Sequence record: NC_055708.1
Source of the DNA: Enterobacteria phage ATK47
Length of the DNA stretch: 64,000 nt
Strand: one strand, 5' to 3'
How positions within the stretch are numbered: position 1 is the stretch's first letter; each line of letters opens with the position of its first letter. Made by a program: the position numbers and the translations under genes. The notes under the pieces are model-generated. The model was not told the DNA's origin, ran no database searches, and saw nothing but the letters and a program-made list of their open reading frames with translations. Below, piece after piece: positions 3,097 through 61,261 of this stretch.

Positions 3097-3150
3097 GTTT
3101 ACTTCCTCCAAGGGTTTTGATACTATACATTCATCAACTACTTGGAGGAA
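3097..3150 (+). promoter_or_regulatory. Early promoter (GTTTAC, TACTAT) with inverted repeat cttcctccaag/cttggaggaa covering the denV SD
   Basis: Read directly; 18-bp spacer. Confidence 0.5.
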
Positions 3151-5514: not shown

Positions 5515-5770
5515 AGATATTAAAGGCTACAAGCCACATACCGACGATAAAATCAGTAAAGTGAACGCTATTAAAGATGCAGAAGTCCGTCTTGGATTGA
5601 TGTTTGATGCTCTGATTGAAGAAGCATATATCTTAAAAGAAAATGAAACAGAGCAACAAACCAAAGAAGATATGGATGCAGTGCAGGCTCTTAAGTATGC
5701 TAAGCAACATCTAAAAGAAGCTAGTATGTGGGCTTGTCGTGCGGTATTTCAACCAGAGGAAAAATACTAA
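5504..5770 (+). CDS. Hypothetical helical protein, 88 aa (sits where T4 vs.4 would be)
   Basis: Internal ATG 5504 with SD GAGGAA; position two genes upstream of regB. Confidence 0.4.
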
Positions 5771-6069
5771 TGGCTCAAATCCTATCAGGCTTTGGAACTC
5801 ATTATGAAGCATCTCGACGCATAACTGAAAGCAATCCTTTTGGCCTTGTTCCGAAGCACAAGAAAATTCAAAGCCTTGATGACTTTGAGAATCGCCTATG
5901 GGCCCTCTTTAATGAGTACAAGGCATATCTGAAAGAAGACGCTGACGATTGTCTTGAAGAAGATGAGATTGCGTATTACGAACAACGCCTTGAACAGCTC
6001 AAGAACTTCCACCAGGTTCGTGACGAAGTATCTAAAGCAGTTAAAAAGTTAATTCCTTTCAAAGAGTAG
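5770..6069 (+). CDS. Hypothetical protein, 99 aa
   Basis: ORF, ATG 5770. Confidence 0.45.
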
Positions 6070-6117
6070 TTTACTTCTCCTCTAGTTGTGTTACTATAGA
6101 CCTGTCAACTAGAGGAG
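6069..6117 (+). promoter_or_regulatory. Early promoter-stem-loop element (GTTTAC, TACTAT; inverted repeat ctcctctagttg/caactagaggag)
   Basis: 12-bp perfect inverted repeat; 3' arm carries the regB SD. Confidence 0.6.
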
Positions 6118-6125
6118 AAATCAAA

Positions 6126-9902: not shown

Positions 9903-9953
9903 GTTTACTTCTCCTTGAGATGTGTTATAGTAGTCCTTACTTACTAGAGGAGA
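9903..9953 (+). promoter_or_regulatory. Early promoter (GTTTAC, TATAGT) with TATAGTAGTCCT box
   Basis: 17-bp spacing. Confidence 0.5.
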
Positions 9954-9958
9954 ACGTT

Positions 9959-10145: not shown

Positions 10146-10352
10146 ATGCTTTACGATTATACTGGAAAATCTGAAGACGGTGTGCTTGAACTTTTACCTG
10201 AAAGCGCTGAAGATGATGATATGGTGGCAATGTTTTGTAAAAATGGTCCTGGGGATAAGGGATGGATTTATCTTCGCCAAGAAAATGACCTAATTGTTTT
10301 AGACCCAAAACAAGTTGAAGAACTTTATCAACATTTAAAACACAATCGGTAG
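10146..10352 (+). CDS. Hypothetical acidic small protein
   Basis: ORF. Confidence 0.35.
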   Translation: MLYDYTGKSEDGVLELLPESAEDDDMVAMFCKNGPGDKGWIYLRQENDLIVLDPKQVEELYQHLKHNR

Positions 10353-10390
10353 TTTACATCTTGGTAGGACTATGTTATAGTAGTCCTACC
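10352..10390 (+). promoter_or_regulatory. Early promoter-stem-loop (GTTTAC; inverted repeat ggtaggactat/atagtagtcctacc)
   Basis: Read directly. Confidence 0.55.
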
Positions 10391-10516
10391 AAAACAAACG
10401 GAGAACAAAATGAAACTTTTGCTTATCGCTTATGTTGTAGTACAATACAATTATCCGATGTTTACTTATAACATGGTAAACGGCATAGTGAATCTTATTG
10501 AAACGAGTATGGTAAA

Positions 10517-10696
10517 ATGACCCGTGAACAAGCTAATAAATTGATGGACCTTATCCGTGACCTACGTGAAGCCGATTCAGATTTGAATGATGTAGCTTAT
10601 CACGCGGTAAATGATAACGGAGACTTTTATGAAAATCAGGTTGATGCGTGCCAGAATGCTTTGGTGAATTTTGTTGAAACTTTAATTGGTGAATAA
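10517..10696 (+). CDS. Hypothetical small acidic protein
   Basis: 59-aa ORF, ATGA overlap with a 36-aa ORF (10410-10520). Confidence 0.3.
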   Translation: MTREQANKLMDLIRDLREADSDLNDVAYHAVNDNGDFYENQVDACQNALVNFVETLIGE

Positions 10697-14515: not shown

Positions 14516-14549
14516 GTTTACAAGGTCTATGGTTATGTTATTATAGACC
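14516..14549 (+). promoter_or_regulatory. Early promoter-stem-loop (GTTTAC, TATTAT; inverted repeat aggtctat/atagacct)
   Basis: Read directly. Confidence 0.55.
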
Positions 14550-14571
14550 TATCAACTACTGGAGGTAAAAC

Positions 14572-17176: not shown

Positions 17177-17206
17177 GTTTACAACCAAGGACGGTTGGAG
17201 TATAAT
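17177..17206 (+). promoter_or_regulatory. Conserved early promoter copy (GTTTACaaccaaggacggttggagTATAAT)
   Basis: Read directly. Confidence 0.6.
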
Positions 17207-20732: not shown

Positions 20733-20764
20733 TATAAATACCCTTATCTATTTAAGGTAAGGGT
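20733..20764 (+). promoter_or_regulatory. Late-promoter consensus TATAAATA followed by hairpin accctta/taagggt upstream of gene 49
   Basis: Exact TATAAATA at 20733-20740. Confidence 0.5.
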
Positions 20765-20769
20765 TTATC

Positions 20770-24568: not shown

Positions 24569-24617
24569 GTTTACATCCTCAATAGATGTGTTAAGATTAA
24601 ACCATCTGCTATAGAGG
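24569..24617 (+). promoter_or_regulatory. Early promoter (GTTTAC) with partial inverted repeat over the SD
   Basis: Read directly; -10 weak. Confidence 0.4.
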
Positions 24618-24626
24618 AAAACAAAA

Positions 24627-24808
24627 TGAAAATTGAAGATAAAGAAATTAAGGTTGACCAGTATTATTCTGTCAATGGTAATGCAGTACGGATAACCAGA
24701 ATTTCAAGCCTGGATGTTTGGTATCGTTCAATCAAATATCCAGAAATTGGTGAAATGCTTTGTGACCGTAGTATCTTCTGTTCAATTGCGAAGGAAATTA
24801 AGCCATGA
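24627..24808 (+). CDS. Hypothetical small protein
   Basis: ATG after SD. Confidence 0.3.
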
Positions 24809-25053
24809 TTAGTTTGGATTCAAAGAAGGTTGTTCTAACCCTTAAAGTTAATGATGAGCGACCGGTATTCGTTACCATTTCAGATTTGCATGTTGAAATT
24901 GCTAATGGCGTTCGTACTTATCAAACGTCTAAAACTCAATGGGACTATATCCCAATGTTGACGCTTACTCAGCGTTTAGAATCAATCGGTCTTAAAGACC
25001 TTTCAGTAAGTGAAGTGAATTTTATCAAACGCATTGTATCAATCAACCTCTGA
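24805..25053 (+). CDS. Hypothetical protein
   Basis: ATGA overlap. Confidence 0.4.
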   Translation: MISLDSKKVVLTLKVNDERPVFVTISDLHVEIANGVRTYQTSKTQWDYIPMLTLTQRLESIGLKDLSVSEVNFIKRIVSINL

Positions 25054-25695: not shown

Positions 25696-25740
25696 ATGTA
25701 CAACGATAGGAAGACATGTTATTATCTTCCTATCGTCTTA
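25696..25740 (+). promoter_or_regulatory. Early promoter-stem-loop (aTGTAC, TATTAT; inverted repeat gataggaaga/tcttcctatc)
   Basis: 10-bp perfect inverted repeat. Confidence 0.55.
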
Positions 25741-26619: not shown

Positions 26620-26885
26620 AATTAACTCGAATCAGTATAACTGAAGAAAAGCTGGGCGAATTTTACATCGACAACTTTATGAAAGTCACGTATTTTCCAT
26701 TCGTTAAAGGTGTTGGTTTTTGGGAAACTCATGTATCTCAATTAAACGAAGGCGACTATAACGAAACACATGAGAACTTTTTAGATTTTCTTTATAACGC
26801 CGGTCTTACTGAGCTTTATATCGATATCCATGAGTTCAAACGTTTAATGGAAAAAGTGTTTCAGGCTTATTGTTTGCTCCGATAG
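26616..26885 (+). CDS. Hypothetical protein
   Basis: ORF. Confidence 0.4.
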   Translation: MKLTRISITEEKLGEFYIDNFMKVTYFPFVKGVGFWETHVSQLNEGDYNETHENFLDFLYNAGLTELYIDIHEFKRLMEKVFQAYCLLR

Positions 26886-26899
26886 TATCTCGTGCTTTA

Positions 26900-26935
26900 A
26901 GATAGGTCTCTAAATATTATGATATAATAGACCTA
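26900..26935 (+). promoter_or_regulatory. Promoter-like element with hairpin ataggtct/agacctat around TATAAT
   Basis: -35 hexamer unclear. Confidence 0.4.
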
Positions 26936-26957
26936 TGAATTGAGCCAAGAGGTACTT

Positions 26958-47504: not shown

Positions 47505-47511
47505 TAAAAAA

Positions 47512-47531
47512 GGAGACTTCGGTCTCCTTTC
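47512..47531 (+). terminator. Rho-independent terminator (UUCG tetraloop)
   Basis: ggagac-ttcg-gtctcc + TTT. Confidence 0.75.
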
Positions 47532-47534
47532 GGG

Positions 47535-47564
47535 GTTTACATCTTCCTCTAGGCATGATATGAT
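47535..47564 (+). promoter_or_regulatory. Early promoter (GTTTAC, TATGAT)
   Basis: 18-bp spacing. Confidence 0.45.
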
Positions 47565-47593
47565 GTACTTACACCAACCAAGAGGAAAACATT

Positions 47594-47968
47594 ATGAATA
47601 TGTCTCAAGCAATTTTTACTGCAATCACCGAAAACACAACTGTTGAAGTAGTTTCTCCGCTGGCAACCTACGTTATTCTTGCTCCTAAATCTATTGTATC
47701 TCGTATGGAAAACATGGGCAAACGTATCGTACAAATCGTTGGAGCCGGAAATCAAAAACTTGATTATCTGCGAACCATCAAAGCTTATGAACATTTCCAA
47801 CTCGAAAAAGGTTCTCCTATCCAGGTAGAACTCGTAAATGGTGATATCGTTCGAGCAATGTTCCATCATTTCTATGCATTGAATGACCCATCTAAAGCGG
47901 TTCGTTTAATTGCATACGACGCAAACCAAAACGAAATCAACGCAGATATATCTAAATTACGTTTTTAA
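47594..47968 (+). CDS. Hypothetical protein
   Basis: ORF with SD. Confidence 0.45.
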   Translation: MNMSQAIFTAITENTTVEVVSPLATYVILAPKSIVSRMENMGKRIVQIVGAGNQKLDYLRTIKAYEHFQLEKGSPIQVELVNGDIVRAMFHHFYALNDPSKAVRLIAYDANQNEINADISKLRF

Positions 47969-48017
47969 GTTTACTTCTCCAGTAGTTGTGTTATTATAGA
48001 CCTATCAACTACTGGAG
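47969..48017 (+). promoter_or_regulatory. Early promoter-stem-loop (GTTTAC, TATTAT; inverted repeat ctccagtagttg/caactactggag)
   Basis: 12-bp perfect inverted repeat; 3' arm includes SD. Confidence 0.6.
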
Positions 48018-48023
48018 AACAAA

Positions 48024-48341
48024 ATGAAAACCATCGATTGTAAAGCAGAATTTAAGATTTTTTATCACGGTTCAAGTAGTTCAGCTAACATCGAAAACAT
48101 GCTTTGTCCTCCTGAAGAAACAGGAGTTCTGTCTGAAACTGGACGTAAGAAAAACTTGAATCGTGTATTCTTTACTGAAGATATCGGTTTAGCAAAGATT
48201 TATGCAGGACGAGCAGCACGCTCTTATGGAGGTGAACCACGTCTCTATCGAGTAATTTCTCCGGTAGACGTAGTTCAAATGAATAATACTAAAGGTGCTA
48301 CAGTTTATCACGCTGAATGGGCATTTTGCGAGGAAATATGA
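48024..48341 (+). CDS. Hypothetical protein
   Basis: ORF. Confidence 0.4.
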   Translation: MKTIDCKAEFKIFYHGSSSSANIENMLCPPEETGVLSETGRKKNLNRVFFTEDIGLAKIYAGRAARSYGGEPRLYRVISPVDVVQMNNTKGATVYHAEWAFCEEI

Positions 48342-48539: not shown

Positions 48540-48569
48540 GTTTACAAGCACCACATACTGTGTTACTAT
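48540..48569 (+). promoter_or_regulatory. Early promoter (GTTTAC, TACTAT)
   Basis: 18-bp spacing. Confidence 0.5.
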
Positions 48570-53119: not shown

Positions 53120-53128
53120 ATAATTTAA

Positions 53129-53152
53129 GGAATCCTTCGGGATTCCTTTTTT
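53129..53152 (+). terminator. Rho-independent terminator (UUCG tetraloop)
   Basis: ggaatcc-ttcg-ggattcc + TTTTTT. Confidence 0.8.
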
Positions 53153-53220: not shown

Positions 53221-53448
53221 ATGTTAAATCGTTGGATTAAACCTAATAACACATTAGGTGCTTTGATTGCTCAAGAAGTTTCGTTGAAATACGGTCTTGG
53301 ATATTACGATGATGTAGTCGTACACTCATTCATGATGGATGGTGAAGACGTCAAATTTAATGCCGAAATCCGCTGGGATGATGGTGGCGTTCGTTTTGTT
53401 CGAGGAACAATTAATGCTTACGATGCTAAAGAAGTTATTTGCTGTTAA
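53221..53448 (+). CDS. Hypothetical protein
   Basis: ORF with SD. Confidence 0.4.
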   Translation: MLNRWIKPNNTLGALIAQEVSLKYGLGYYDDVVVHSFMMDGEDVKFNAEIRWDDGGVRFVRGTINAYDAKEVICC

Positions 53449-54483: not shown

Positions 54484-54656
54484 AAGAGAAATTTAAAGAG
54501 AAATTCTTACTAGAAATCAAGGAAAAAGACTTTGAGACATGGTATCGAATGGTGAAAGGGTTGACATTGCTTTTTAAAGCGTCCTTATTCATGTTAGGAC
54601 AACCTGGCCCAGATGGTCCTTTAGTAGGAAAGCTTAAAAATAGTTTACAAAAGTAG
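54480..54656 (+). CDS. Hypothetical small protein
   Basis: ORF. Confidence 0.3.
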   Translation: MKEKFKEKFLLEIKEKDFETWYRMVKGLTLLFKASLFMLGQPGPDGPLVGKLKNSLQK

Positions 54657-54684
54657 TTTACATTCCCTCCTCTCGTGTTATGAT
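54656..54684 (+). promoter_or_regulatory. Early promoter (tandem GTTTAC hexamers, TATGAT)
   Basis: Two GTTTAC copies 12 bp apart. Confidence 0.45.
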
Positions 54685-54711
54685 AGGCTTATCTTTAAAT
54701 GGAGGTCTATC

Positions 54712-55293
54712 ATGACATGTCAATCTGAACTTCAAGAACGCGAATACCTAACAAATCTGATTGATAGCAAATTCACCCGCCAAGAACAAAACATTCTCTG
54801 GGCTTGCACCGATTCTAAGGAAGACCCAGATTTCCACTATGAATTAGACCGTCTTGTTCGTAAGCATATGACTTCTACAGTACCAGTAGAACTCTACCGT
54901 GGTGTAACTCCAGAAGAAGTAGAACGTCTTTCCCTTCTTTCTGTTGGATGCCATTGGTCTCCTGGACGAGTAACATCGTTCACAACTGATTTCGGTACAG
55001 CTCGTCAATTCTCTGGGAGATGGGAATATCAGACGTACACTATTCTTAGTCTCAGGAATGCTCCATTCATTTTTGATTACTACCAAAACATGGTTAACAT
55101 TGTACTTGCCGGAAAGAATCCTAAGCATGTTATGGAAGAAACGCGTGTTGACGTCCTAGATATGATTGAATCTGAACAAGAATACATGGTCTCAGGTATC
55201 TCTAGATTTGAGATTGTGGAAATTGAAGACTTAGAATATGACCCTTTATCTCGACTATACAAAATCATTCATTTAAAAATGTTGAATTTTTAG
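54712..55293 (+). CDS. modB: ADP-ribosyltransferase, ModB-like
   Basis: YRG (Arg), S-x-T region and E-Q-E motif; paralog of next gene; position soc-side of dda. Confidence 0.65.
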   Translation: MTCQSELQEREYLTNLIDSKFTRQEQNILWACTDSKEDPDFHYELDRLVRKHMTSTVPVELYRGVTPEEVERLSLLSVGCHWSPGRVTSFTTDFGTARQFSGRWEYQTYTILSLRNAPFIFDYYQNMVNIVLAGKNPKHVMEETRVDVLDMIESEQEYMVSGISRFEIVEIEDLEYDPLSRLYKIIHLKMLNF

Positions 55294-60681: not shown

Positions 60682-60730
60682 GTTTACTTCTCCTCTGTTT
60701 TTGATATTATAACCATATCAACCAGAGGAG
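60682..60730 (+). promoter_or_regulatory. Early promoter-stem-loop (GTTTAC, TATTAT; inverted repeat ctcctctg/cagaggag)
   Basis: 3' arm carries the SD. Confidence 0.55.
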
Positions 60731-60736
60731 AATAAT

Positions 60737-61261
60737 ATGTTAGTTTACCGCGTAGAACGTAGTTTTTGCACTCAACGTGAATCTTTACCAGGAGTTGCTA
60801 TCGAAGATGGTAAAGCCGTCAGAATTTGGGAAACCTCTTGGAATAAAGAACCTCGTTCGCCATACGGTTGGTCGGGCACCGACAACTCTGAAGAAACATG
60901 GGAGTTCCTTGATAAGCATGGAATACTCTCAGGTAACTTCTACCATCACGGCGACAACTATAATGTCCCTAATCGTCCTACAGTAAATGAAGACAAACTC
61001 CTTGAACAAAATATCTTAAGATACTATAGAATTGAGCACACATTTGAATTGAACGAAGATTGGGCTCAAGGGTTCTATTTTGGATTTGAAAGTGTTGACG
61101 CGGTTTATGCATGGTTTGATGACCAGGTAGATGTTGAACTCTTGAAAGCTAAAGGATACTACATCGCGGTCTATGAAGCACCTGATTTCATCCTCGGAAG
61201 TTGTCAATTAATGTTCAGACGTTCATTGGCAGAACAAGTTGATTTTATTTTGCTAAAATGA
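60737..61261 (+). CDS. Hypothetical protein, 174 aa
   Basis: ORF. Confidence 0.4.
   Translation: MLVYRVERSFCTQRESLPGVAIEDGKAVRIWETSWNKEPRSPYGWSGTDNSEETWEFLDKHGILSGNFYHHGDNYNVPNRPTVNEDKLLEQNILRYYRIEHTFELNEDWAQGFYFGFESVDAVYAWFDDQVDVELLKAKGYYIAVYEAPDFILGSCQLMFRRSLAEQVDFILLK

Follow-up and report, generated by a model that had tools for sequence, protein, structure and literature searches.

We analyzed a 64,000-nucleotide stretch of T4-like phage DNA (hereafter the window), in which several early promoters are embedded in inverted repeats, some of which reach the Shine-Dalgarno (SD) sequence of the following gene. In a subset of these hairpins, the SD falls within the 3' arm, and the 5' arm lies ahead of the expected transcription start. 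Only RNA begun further upstream would carry both arms. We lean toward the reading that, at genes with such SD-covering hairpins, an mRNA is translated or not according to the promoter that produced it. The evidence consists of sequence geometry, predicted thermodynamics, a statistical excess of repeats and compensatory conservation across lineages. The first-pass annotation of this DNA had proposed that such hairpins hide the ribosome-binding site only in read-through transcripts. In silico and comparatively, this mechanism stood for the SD-covering subset, but three of the sites cited for it never touch the SD, and it is not general. The window is 100% identical to positions 34525-98524 of Enterobacteria phage ATK48 (KT184310.1), genus Mosigvirus, of the RB69 group of T4-like phages, and is named ATK48 in all comparisons below. 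Its + strand carries the early genes, from e, denV and regB by way of 41, 61 and modB to gene 39, and all window sites below lie on it.

At the flagged site (47969-48019), the elements follow in the order GTTTAC, TTCTCCAGTAGTTG, tgt, TATTAT, agacctat, CAACTACTGGAGAA, caaa and ATG (48024). The -35 hexamer GTTTAC (47969-47974) matches Pe:20537, an RB69 early promoter predicted at the equivalent position (Nolan et al. 2006, Additional file 3), which we placed at 47969 via RB69ORF041c. The 5' arm TTCTCCAGTAGTTG (47975-47988) fills the -35/-10 spacer and holds an anti-SD-like CUCC. The -10 hexamer TATTAT (47992-47997), with TGt before it, lies in the hairpin loop. The 3' arm CAACTACTGGAGAA (48006-48019) includes the SD GGAG at 48014-48017, 6 nt ahead of the ATG of an early open reading frame (ORF) of 105 aa (48024-48341), which is annotated upstream of dmd and whose start is masked in the predicted read-through RNA. 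The arms thereby form a perfect 14-bp stem with a 17-nt loop; the repeat had been described as 8-12 bp and as ending at 48017, 2 nt short of the actual end. Transcription starts were placed from promoter geometry at the 7th nt after the -10, which predicts 48004 here. Because the 5' arm is within the spacer, it is absent from the promoter's own transcript, whatever the exact start. Read-through RNA could come from the unit at 47535-47968, recognized by promoter motif and annotation, which consists of the early promoter P47535 and ORF 47594-47968 (RB69ORF041c). No terminator was found between this unit and 47969. The gene 41 terminator AAAGGAGAC-ttcg-GTCTCCTTT (47509-47530) precedes the unit. 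A terminator after gene 41 and a promoter for the upstream ORF, Pe:20971, are also predicted in RB69 (Nolan et al. 2006). The 47969 hairpin itself was considered as an intrinsic terminator and rejected; it has a 17-nt loop, is followed by CAAAAUG and was not listed by a terminator scan.

The opening energy, that is, the ensemble energy required to unpair positions -14 to +2 relative to the start codon, was compared between promoter-initiated RNA and RNA beginning 100 nt further upstream. At 47969, it was 3.2 kcal/mol in the own transcript and 19.3 kcal/mol in the read-through transcript. The corresponding values were 4.9 and 16.8 kcal/mol at 6069 (regB), 2.9 and 13.5 at 3097 (denV), 2.3 and 17.7 at 60682 (motB.2 homologue), and 4.4 and 15.4 at 54656 (modB), so the read-through cost at these sites ranged from +10.6 to +16.1 kcal/mol. 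The gain was +9.0 kcal/mol at 9903 and +8.1 kcal/mol at 24569, and only 0-3 kcal/mol at sites whose hairpins end before the transcription start (pre-start hairpins). Thus, the comparison of read-through and own 5' untranslated regions (UTRs), which had been suggested as a check, predicted the SD to be locked at 3097, 6069, 47969 and 60682, and also at the previously unlisted 54656, but not at 10352, 14516 and 25696. Folding of 47930-48060 placed the hairpin in both the minimum-free-energy and the centroid structure (z = -3.3), whereas 48004-48060, representing the own transcript, showed no structure (z = 0.13). The promoter-initiated 5' UTRs of the SD-covered subset are ~20 nt long and are predicted to be unstructured. 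As a positive control, 82 genes without a proximal early promoter were treated in the same way. Genes e (17.4 kcal/mol), 49 (14.4) and soc (10.4), the textbook T4 examples of a hairpin-sequestered start, were among the top read-through values, and gene 55 was also high (16.0 kcal/mol). At least 12.5 kcal/mol was reached by 6/22 promoter-proximal genes compared to 3/82 others (Fisher p = 0.003), and the occlusion energies at the early-promoter sites equal or exceed those of e, 49 and soc in the same window.

Alternatively, the pairing might not be under selection at all and could be due to chance, or to the copies being paralogues of a single palindromic promoter module. Several copies in the window indeed share TTCTCC...GTTG and the leader ATCAACTAC...GGAGAA, and a pyrimidine-rich spacer pairs with a purine-rich SD anyway, cross-pairing amounting to -9 to -13 kcal/mol. 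Nevertheless, composition-preserving shuffles of the spacer never matched the observed occlusion at 3097, 6069, 47969, 54656 and 60682 (0/60 each); the matches were 2/60 at 24569 and 7/60 at 9903, the latter site being not significant. Long repeats were also far more numerous than in simulations. Allowing loops of 3-35 nt, the window contains 8 perfect inverted repeats of at least 10 bp, 4 of at least 12 bp and 2 of at least 14 bp, where the means of 40 first-order Markov simulations were 2.9, 0.28 and 0.05. The intergenic repeats of at least 10 bp (6/6) were all inside GTTTAC-N17/18-TAnnnT early-promoter motifs. Furthermore, unrelated stems occur at the same genes in different phage groups (CCGTTTG/CAAACGG, ATGTCCTCC/GGAGGACAT, TGTAAG/CTTACA and others). 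Chance or paralogy is disfavored by these results, and we regard it as extremely unlikely. A generic sigma-70 and terminator scan of the window gave no enrichment over shuffles and was uninformative, and Rfam returned 0 matches at the gathering threshold across the whole window.

Early promoters in the window were defined by the T4-type motif GTTTAC-N16-18-TAnnnT, and their hairpins fall into distinct layouts. By repeat and folding analysis, the regB promoter (6069-6119) has arms at 6075-6088 and 6106-6119 (14 bp), and the denV promoter (3097-3150) has arms at 3103-3112 and 3141-3150 (10 bp), with the SD in the 3' arm in both. At the motB.2 homologue (60682-60732), the arms are 60688-60697 and 60723-60732, and the stem is 10 bp here and 13 bp in close relatives. 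The modB site (54656-54713), which had been missed, is a variant in which the 5' arm comprises the -10 and discriminator (54680-54690) and the 3' arm runs from the SD to the AUG (54703-54713), forming 9 Watson-Crick pairs and 2 G.U pairs. Two weaker sites were likewise missing from the earlier list. One is at 9903-9954, where TTCTCCT (9909-9915) pairs with AGGAGAA (9948-9954) together with an imperfect extension, and the other is an imperfect stem at 24569-24618 (arms 24576-24585 and 24609-24618), which precedes an unannotated ORF with its start at 24626. In the pre-start layout, the 3' arm adjoins or overlaps the -10 and finishes before the predicted start, leaving the SD uncovered. This was observed at site 10352, with 12 bp around the -10 (10361-10392; arms 10361-10372 and 10381-10392), a typical position of the promoter-early stem-loops (PeSLs) described below. 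It was also observed at 25696, with 12 bp and the -10 in the loop (25703-25736; arms 25703-25714 and 25725-25736), and at 14516, before the nrdC.8 homologue, with 8 bp (14523-14550; arms 14523-14530 and 14543-14550). The third layout, a small hairpin entirely within the spacer, was found at 17177 and 59176. No U-tract follows the SD-covering or pre-start stems in the window, where A-rich leaders come next, and intrinsic termination at these stems is therefore unlikely. The claim that the 3' arm covers the SD thus applied to 4 of the 7 listed sites (3097, 6069, 47969 and 60682), the SD being unpaired downstream at 10352, 14516 and 25696. The architecture had also been taken as generalized to many early genes; instead, ~5-7 of 22 promoter-gene pairs occlude the SD, which makes it a gene-specific subset.

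Two sequence features accompany these promoters. The conserved leader motif (T)ATCAAC(TAC), from about +1, occurs in many ATK48 and T4 early promoters with or without a complementary 5' arm, including 3097, 6069, 14516, 47969, 48540, 55293, 60682 and their T4 homologues. In addition, early-promoter spacers often open with (A/T)TCTCC or TTCCTC. RB69 early promoters have been reported to favor C at -3 to -1 (Nolan et al. 2006).

Upstream regions of orthologues were taken from IMG/VR and from T4 itself; IMG/VR yielded few orthologous loci for site 25757, which has a pre-start hairpin, and for modB and motB.2. An SD-covering stem is kept upstream of regB, denV, modB, motB.2 and nrdC.8 in several T4-like groups, including T4, with differing sequences. 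For regB, a stem between spacer and SD was found in all groups but the most distant, and its inner sequence differs: TCTAGTTG/CAACTAGA in the RB69 type, TCTTGACTG/CAGTTAAGA with two G.U pairs in T4 and close relatives, and TCTTTATG/CATAAAGA and TGTAAG/CTTACA elsewhere. The regB region of one lineage has a two-tier structure. Among 27 distinct promoter-bearing denV upstream regions, the read-through gain was at least 7 kcal/mol in 22 and at least 4 kcal/mol in 26. The denV 5' arm is in the spacer in some phages and over the -10/discriminator in others (e.g., ATGATGTCTTCC/GGAGGACATCAT and ATGTCCTCCTA/TAGGAGGACAT), but never beyond the expected start; the SD is invariably covered by the 3' arm, which often extends over the AUG as well. 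Similarly, modB has the form pairing the -10/discriminator with the SD-AUG in ATK48, T4 and JS98-like phages with three different sequences, and motB.2 has spacer-to-SD stems in ATK48 and T4. At nrdC.8, the SD is covered in T4-type phages (15 bp with G.U) and JS98-type phages (11 bp), and ATK48 has the pre-start hairpin. When the nrdC.8 locus (14516-14571) was compared with loci L153-L159, the leader tatcaactactggagg was kept despite the differing hairpin class. Because the leader is kept while the stem type differs, the hairpin class apparently can switch at one locus through spacer replacement alone. In T4 itself (0-76 kb), a gain of at least 7 kcal/mol was calculated for 8 of ~24 promoter-gene pairs, namely gene 1, e.8, denV, regB, nrdC.8, imm.1, modB and motB.2, and pre-start hairpins were found at T4 ipI, ipII, ipIII, dmd, mobD.2 and others.

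The compensatory nature of these differences was then quantified. In an alignment-free swap test, the segment ahead of the start paired far more strongly with its own leader than with leaders of other genomes (denV, -15.4 vs -9.5 kcal/mol; regB, -18.2 vs -12.8 kcal/mol). The observed mean was matched by 0/5000 permutations, although the sequences in this and the covariation test are phylogenetically related, and such counts are not exact probabilities. Alignment of raw regB upstream regions by MAFFT and RNAalifold recovered only the 6-bp CUCC/GGAG core, as indels misaligned the arms. In an SD-anchored alignment of 23 distinct spacer-type stems, covariation was 0.413 compared to 0.149 for shuffles (0/500) and at most 0.12 with the partner slid, but the sequences had been picked for at least 7 contiguous core pairs, leaving pairs 3-9 paired by construction. 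For pairs 10 and beyond, which are unbiased, 19/23 sequences pair with 3-4 pair types. Within the helices, 22 G.T were counted against 6 A.C mismatches, three of the latter from a single helix at L102, a locus without a recognizable promoter. Because G.U pairs form in sense RNA only, this excess favors selection at the RNA level over DNA cruciforms.

The two limits just given, on relatedness and on the choice of aligned sequences, weigh against selected masking of the SD, and so do several further points. The whole-hairpin energy did not differ significantly between sense and antisense (denV, p = 0.34; regB, p = 0.05). The promoters at 48540, 48970 and 55293 abut an unterminated upstream ORF and yet have no SD-covering stem, and at 10352, 25696 and 49281, which abut such ORFs as well, the hairpins avoid the SD. 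Insulation is therefore not a general requirement. A strong SD stem was found at ~5/18 promoters lacking a terminator after the upstream ORF compared to 0/4 with one, a difference in the expected direction, but with numbers too few for testing. As for the flagged site, its 14-bp stem is restricted to near-identical RB69-group genomes, and for this reason it offers, in the genomes compared, no covariation of its own. P47535, its sole obvious read-through source, is itself early, which makes the temporal rationale weaker than for regB. Finally, the 47969 stem could have arisen as a side effect when a cassette was inserted between homologous promoter modules. JS98-like phages have the gene 41 terminator and a single promoter directly before the 48024 orthologue, with only a 5-6 bp TCTCC/GGAGA match, and their genomes lack ORF 47594-47968, which is almost exclusive to the RB69 group. 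Their promoter resembles a hybrid between the 5' half of ATK48 P47535 and the 3' half of P47969. The strong stem at 47969 thus coincides with an inserted, unterminated upstream unit, an arrangement that would be consistent with insulation and also with this history.

Such a history belongs to the published view of PeSL elements (Arbiol 2010; Comeau 2014), on which the stem-loop attenuates or terminates upstream transcription, the module serves mainly as a recombination site shuffling ORFan cassettes, and SD coverage is incidental. Every PeSL component is present in the window elements: an early promoter of the sigma-70 type with AT-rich DNA upstream of it, together with a stem-loop, an SD and the ATG. 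At 10352, 14516, 25696, 71, 49281, 17177 and 59176, the hairpins sit at the published pre-start positions, off the SD, and the loop at 25703-25736 is inverted in relatives, which points to an event between the arms at the DNA level. The hybrid promoter of the JS98-like phages, next to a nearly RB69-only ORFan, is also as PeSL-mediated cassette insertion would predict. However, attenuation or termination is not supported by a U-tract after the stems, and the published stem positions all finish before the transcription start, none including the SD. At regB, denV and modB, the 3' arm follows the SD or AUG while the 5' arm shifts, as fits selection on SD pairing rather than on a stem held at one place in the promoter, and the tolerance of G.U but largely not of A.C points to RNA rather than DNA. 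Furthermore, T4 and ATK48 share occlusion at the same genes, conserved genes included. As an explanation of the SD-covering stems, the PeSL view is consequently unlikely in our judgment; the pre-start hairpins are best described as PeSL stem-loops, with a putative function only.

For the SD-covering subset, we propose the following mechanism. The 48024 ORF, regB, denV, modB and the motB.2 homologue each have a strong sigma-70 early promoter right after a preceding, unterminated ORF. The segment before the predicted start, either the spacer after the -35 with its anti-SD-like CUCC or the -10 and discriminator, is complementary to the SD or the SD-AUG. A polymerase arriving from upstream would transcribe both arms, and the hairpin would form in the intercistronic gap once the 3' arm emerges. 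In such read-through RNA, if it exists and folds in vivo as predicted, the hairpin would block 30S binding. RNA from the gene's own promoter, lacking the 5' arm, would have a short open leader and hence would be translated. Protein synthesis would then be set by, and limited to, the burst from the own early promoter, and the gene would be insulated from transcription entering out of upstream genes or inserted cassettes. The same pairing would also hide GGAG from the RegB nuclease in read-through RNA, a shielding that is plausible as a concurrent effect of the same helix.

Shielding might even be the selected function itself. The stem would hide GGAG from RegB or other endonucleases in delayed-early and middle read-through RNA and so preserve polycistrons, while the exposed promoter-proximal transcripts would be quickly inactivated. 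RegB cuts the GGAG of early SDs, its own mRNA's included, and secondary structure inhibits this cleavage; resistance is found at most middle GGAG sites and at all late ones (PMC3014915; PMC1702504). The best-conserved stem belongs to regB itself. The sequence GGAGAACAAAA, which forms the SD at 47969 and 10352, fits the 11-nt RegB/S1 consensus GGAGRAYARAA exactly, and GGAGAATAATA at 60682 fits it nearly; the positions are 48014-48024, 10405-10409+ and 60727-60737. Judged by this match, the leaders at 47969, 10352 and 60682 are likely RegB substrates when single-stranded. Nevertheless, nuclease shielding is compatible with translational masking, since one helix would serve both. The modB-type stems reach the AUG, some denV stems pair SDs called RegB-resistant for sequence reasons (T4 denV; PMC1702504), and denV stems persist in phages with a diverged regB. 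As the selected function in its own right, shielding is rather improbable.

Translational coupling was also considered, in which the downstream gene on read-through RNA is translated only when ribosomes terminating at the upstream stop codon open the stem at its CUCC:GGAG base. At 3097, 6069, 47969 and 60682, the upstream ORF stops 5-10 nt ahead of the 5' arm, and it is the end of this arm nearest the ribosome that pairs with the SD. A terminating ribosome unwinds mRNA to ~+11 from the P site. On this general geometry, it would get no further than the first 0-3 pairs in a stem of 10-14 bp, and the short distance from stop codon to arm is explained by the -35 hexamer in between. Coupling through terminating ribosomes is thus possible but geometrically marginal, and we consider it very unlikely to account for the stems.

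Taken further, promoter-dependent masking leads to a broader proposal that we put forward tentatively and with less confidence than the mechanism itself. T4-like phages may use a conserved, gene-specific form of promoter-gated translation, in which an anti-SD segment before the start silences the gene on upstream-derived transcripts and shields GGAG from RegB. If so, regB, denV, modB, motB.2 and nrdC.8 would be burst-only genes, and the protein output of this set of early genes would track the 5' end of the mRNA rather than its abundance. This would help explain why GGAG sites are RegB-sensitive early and resistant in longer or later RNAs, and early, delayed-early and middle expression and RNA-seq data of T4-type phages would need re-reading. 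ORFan-plus-promoter cassettes could insert upstream without disturbing resident genes, and such insertion would be nearly neutral thanks to the translational-insulator role of PeSL-type modules, linking PeSL shuffling to translational insulation. A promoter with a self-masking leader would also provide a compact natural insulator part of ~50 bp, with possible use in phage or synthetic-operon engineering.

Several other features were observed in the window and in related phages. The hairpins of e, 49 and soc exist here (2301-2328, upstream of 20770 and upstream of 52883). The classical start-sequestering hairpins of e (2301-2328, ATG 2329) and gene 49 (20741-20768, ATG 20770) are kept, with the e/49-type sequence AATACCTCC-tataaacgtg-GGAGGTATT-ATG. 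The GenBank record labels both 'terminator determined with ARNold', and they have no U-tract and overlap the start codons; the annotation is corrected in that several GenBank 'terminators' of this phage are translation-start-sequestering hairpins. The SD of gene 55 (ATG 26958), encoding the late sigma factor, is predicted to be strongly occluded (16 kcal/mol) within 26884-26956. There, an outer stem (26884-26891 / 26949-26956) encloses a nested hairpin, ATAGGTCT...AGACCTAT (26902-26909 / 26929-26936), surrounding a -10-like 'tatgatataat'. The review that lists genes under hairpin start control does not name gene 55 (PMC3014915).

At 25703-25736, comparison with IMG/VR loci L160 (~340-375) and L161 showed that the 12-bp arms are kept (11 bp in L161) and the 10-nt loop is inverted, reading catgttatta in the window and taataacacg or taataacatg in the relatives, with the -10-like TATTAT flipped from its forward orientation. 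The change resembles a DNA-level inversion of the segment between the arms and shows that the hairpin is retained with or without a forward promoter. ORFs unannotated in KT184310 were found at ~5770-6069, 10410-10520, 24626-24808, 24805-25053 and 53221-53448. Those at 10410, 24626 and 53221 each follow a T4-type early promoter and a strong SD. The ORF at ~5770-6069 ends exactly at the regB promoter, in what is probably the position of T4 vs.3, and the stop codon of 24626-24808 overlaps the start codon of 24805-25053. At the denV loci of ~350-kb jumbo phages (L093, L095, L099 and L101), a terminator hairpin (e.g., GGGTTGAC-ttcg-GTCAGCCC with a T-run) lies ~60-30 nt before the ATG, with the -35 TTGAC in its 5' arm and TATAAT after it. 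This terminator-promoter overlap is of the RB49 PeSL type, unlike the SD-masking stems.

The closest known systems are T4 e, soc, 49 and I-TevI, in which the start region is sequestered in upstream-initiated transcripts and a late or middle promoter lies in or beside the hairpin (PMC3014915). Likewise at the window sites, a helix pairs the SD or AUG with a segment found only in transcripts begun further upstream. The known promoters, however, are late (gp55, TATAAATA) or middle, and their effect is delayed translation. The window sites instead have a sigma-70 early promoter, no TATAAATA, and a 5' arm in the spacer or over the -10, and on our model the expected effect would be the mirror image, with translation limited to immediate-early RNA from the own promoter. 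The mechanism had been equated with that known for T4 lysozyme; the SD-masking geometry is indeed the same in silico, but the class of the embedded promoter is not. Because the embedded promoters are of the early sigma-70 type rather than late or middle, the early-promoter sites do not belong to the described set but form a variant of it. The T4 regB promoter, for its part, has been described as a typical early promoter (PMC3014915).

RegB targets resemble the window sites in that the masked sequence is GGAG, the SD of regB is itself among the masked sites, and structure protects (PMC3014915; PMC1702504). They differ in that specificity has so far been explained by an A-rich 3' context, and a promoter-dependent structural switch at a RegB GGAG was not described in the RegB literature found. 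Like intrinsic terminators, the window hairpins are stable stem-loops located where the preceding gene ends. However, the SD-covering stems have long loops (17-28 nt) and no U-tract, while the true terminators of the window (47509-47530 and 53127-53148) have tetraloops and T-runs. The T4 stems themselves were probably noticed long ago, as Valerie et al. reportedly mentioned, in a 1986 abstract, possible stem-loops before T4 ipIII, ipII, denV and orf61.9 (= regB).

The first PeSLs reported were those of RB49/phi1, followed by those of T4/PST and KVP40/nt-1 (Arbiol et al. 2010, PMC2839356; Comeau et al. 2014, PMC4122927). Their stems occupy five positions, all before the start, and the roles proposed for them are attenuation or termination and recombination (PMC2839356; PMC4122927); the terms 'ribosome' and 'translation' are absent from the text of PMC2839356. 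As in the window, each PeSL is an intergenic module that brings together AT-rich DNA, an early promoter of the sigma-70 type, a stem-loop, and the SD and ATG of a gene, and such modules are repeated through early regions, often beside ORFans or indels. The window pre-start hairpins at 71, 10352, 14516, 25696, 49281, 17177 and 59176 match the published stem positions. Unlike PeSLs, the SD-covering stems at 3097, 6069, 47969, 60682 and 54656 extend into the transcribed leader without a U-tract and are conserved by gene, not just near variable ORFans. An association with an ORFan or indel was seen at 47969, the sole site examined for it; it is not general, given that regB, denV and modB belong to the conserved genes. 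Our literature search found no paper describing SD masking by early-promoter-embedded stems in read-through RNA, or their covariation across genera. Thus, the composite promoter/stem-loop element is already known as PeSL, and what this analysis adds is the predicted masking of the SD at early promoters.

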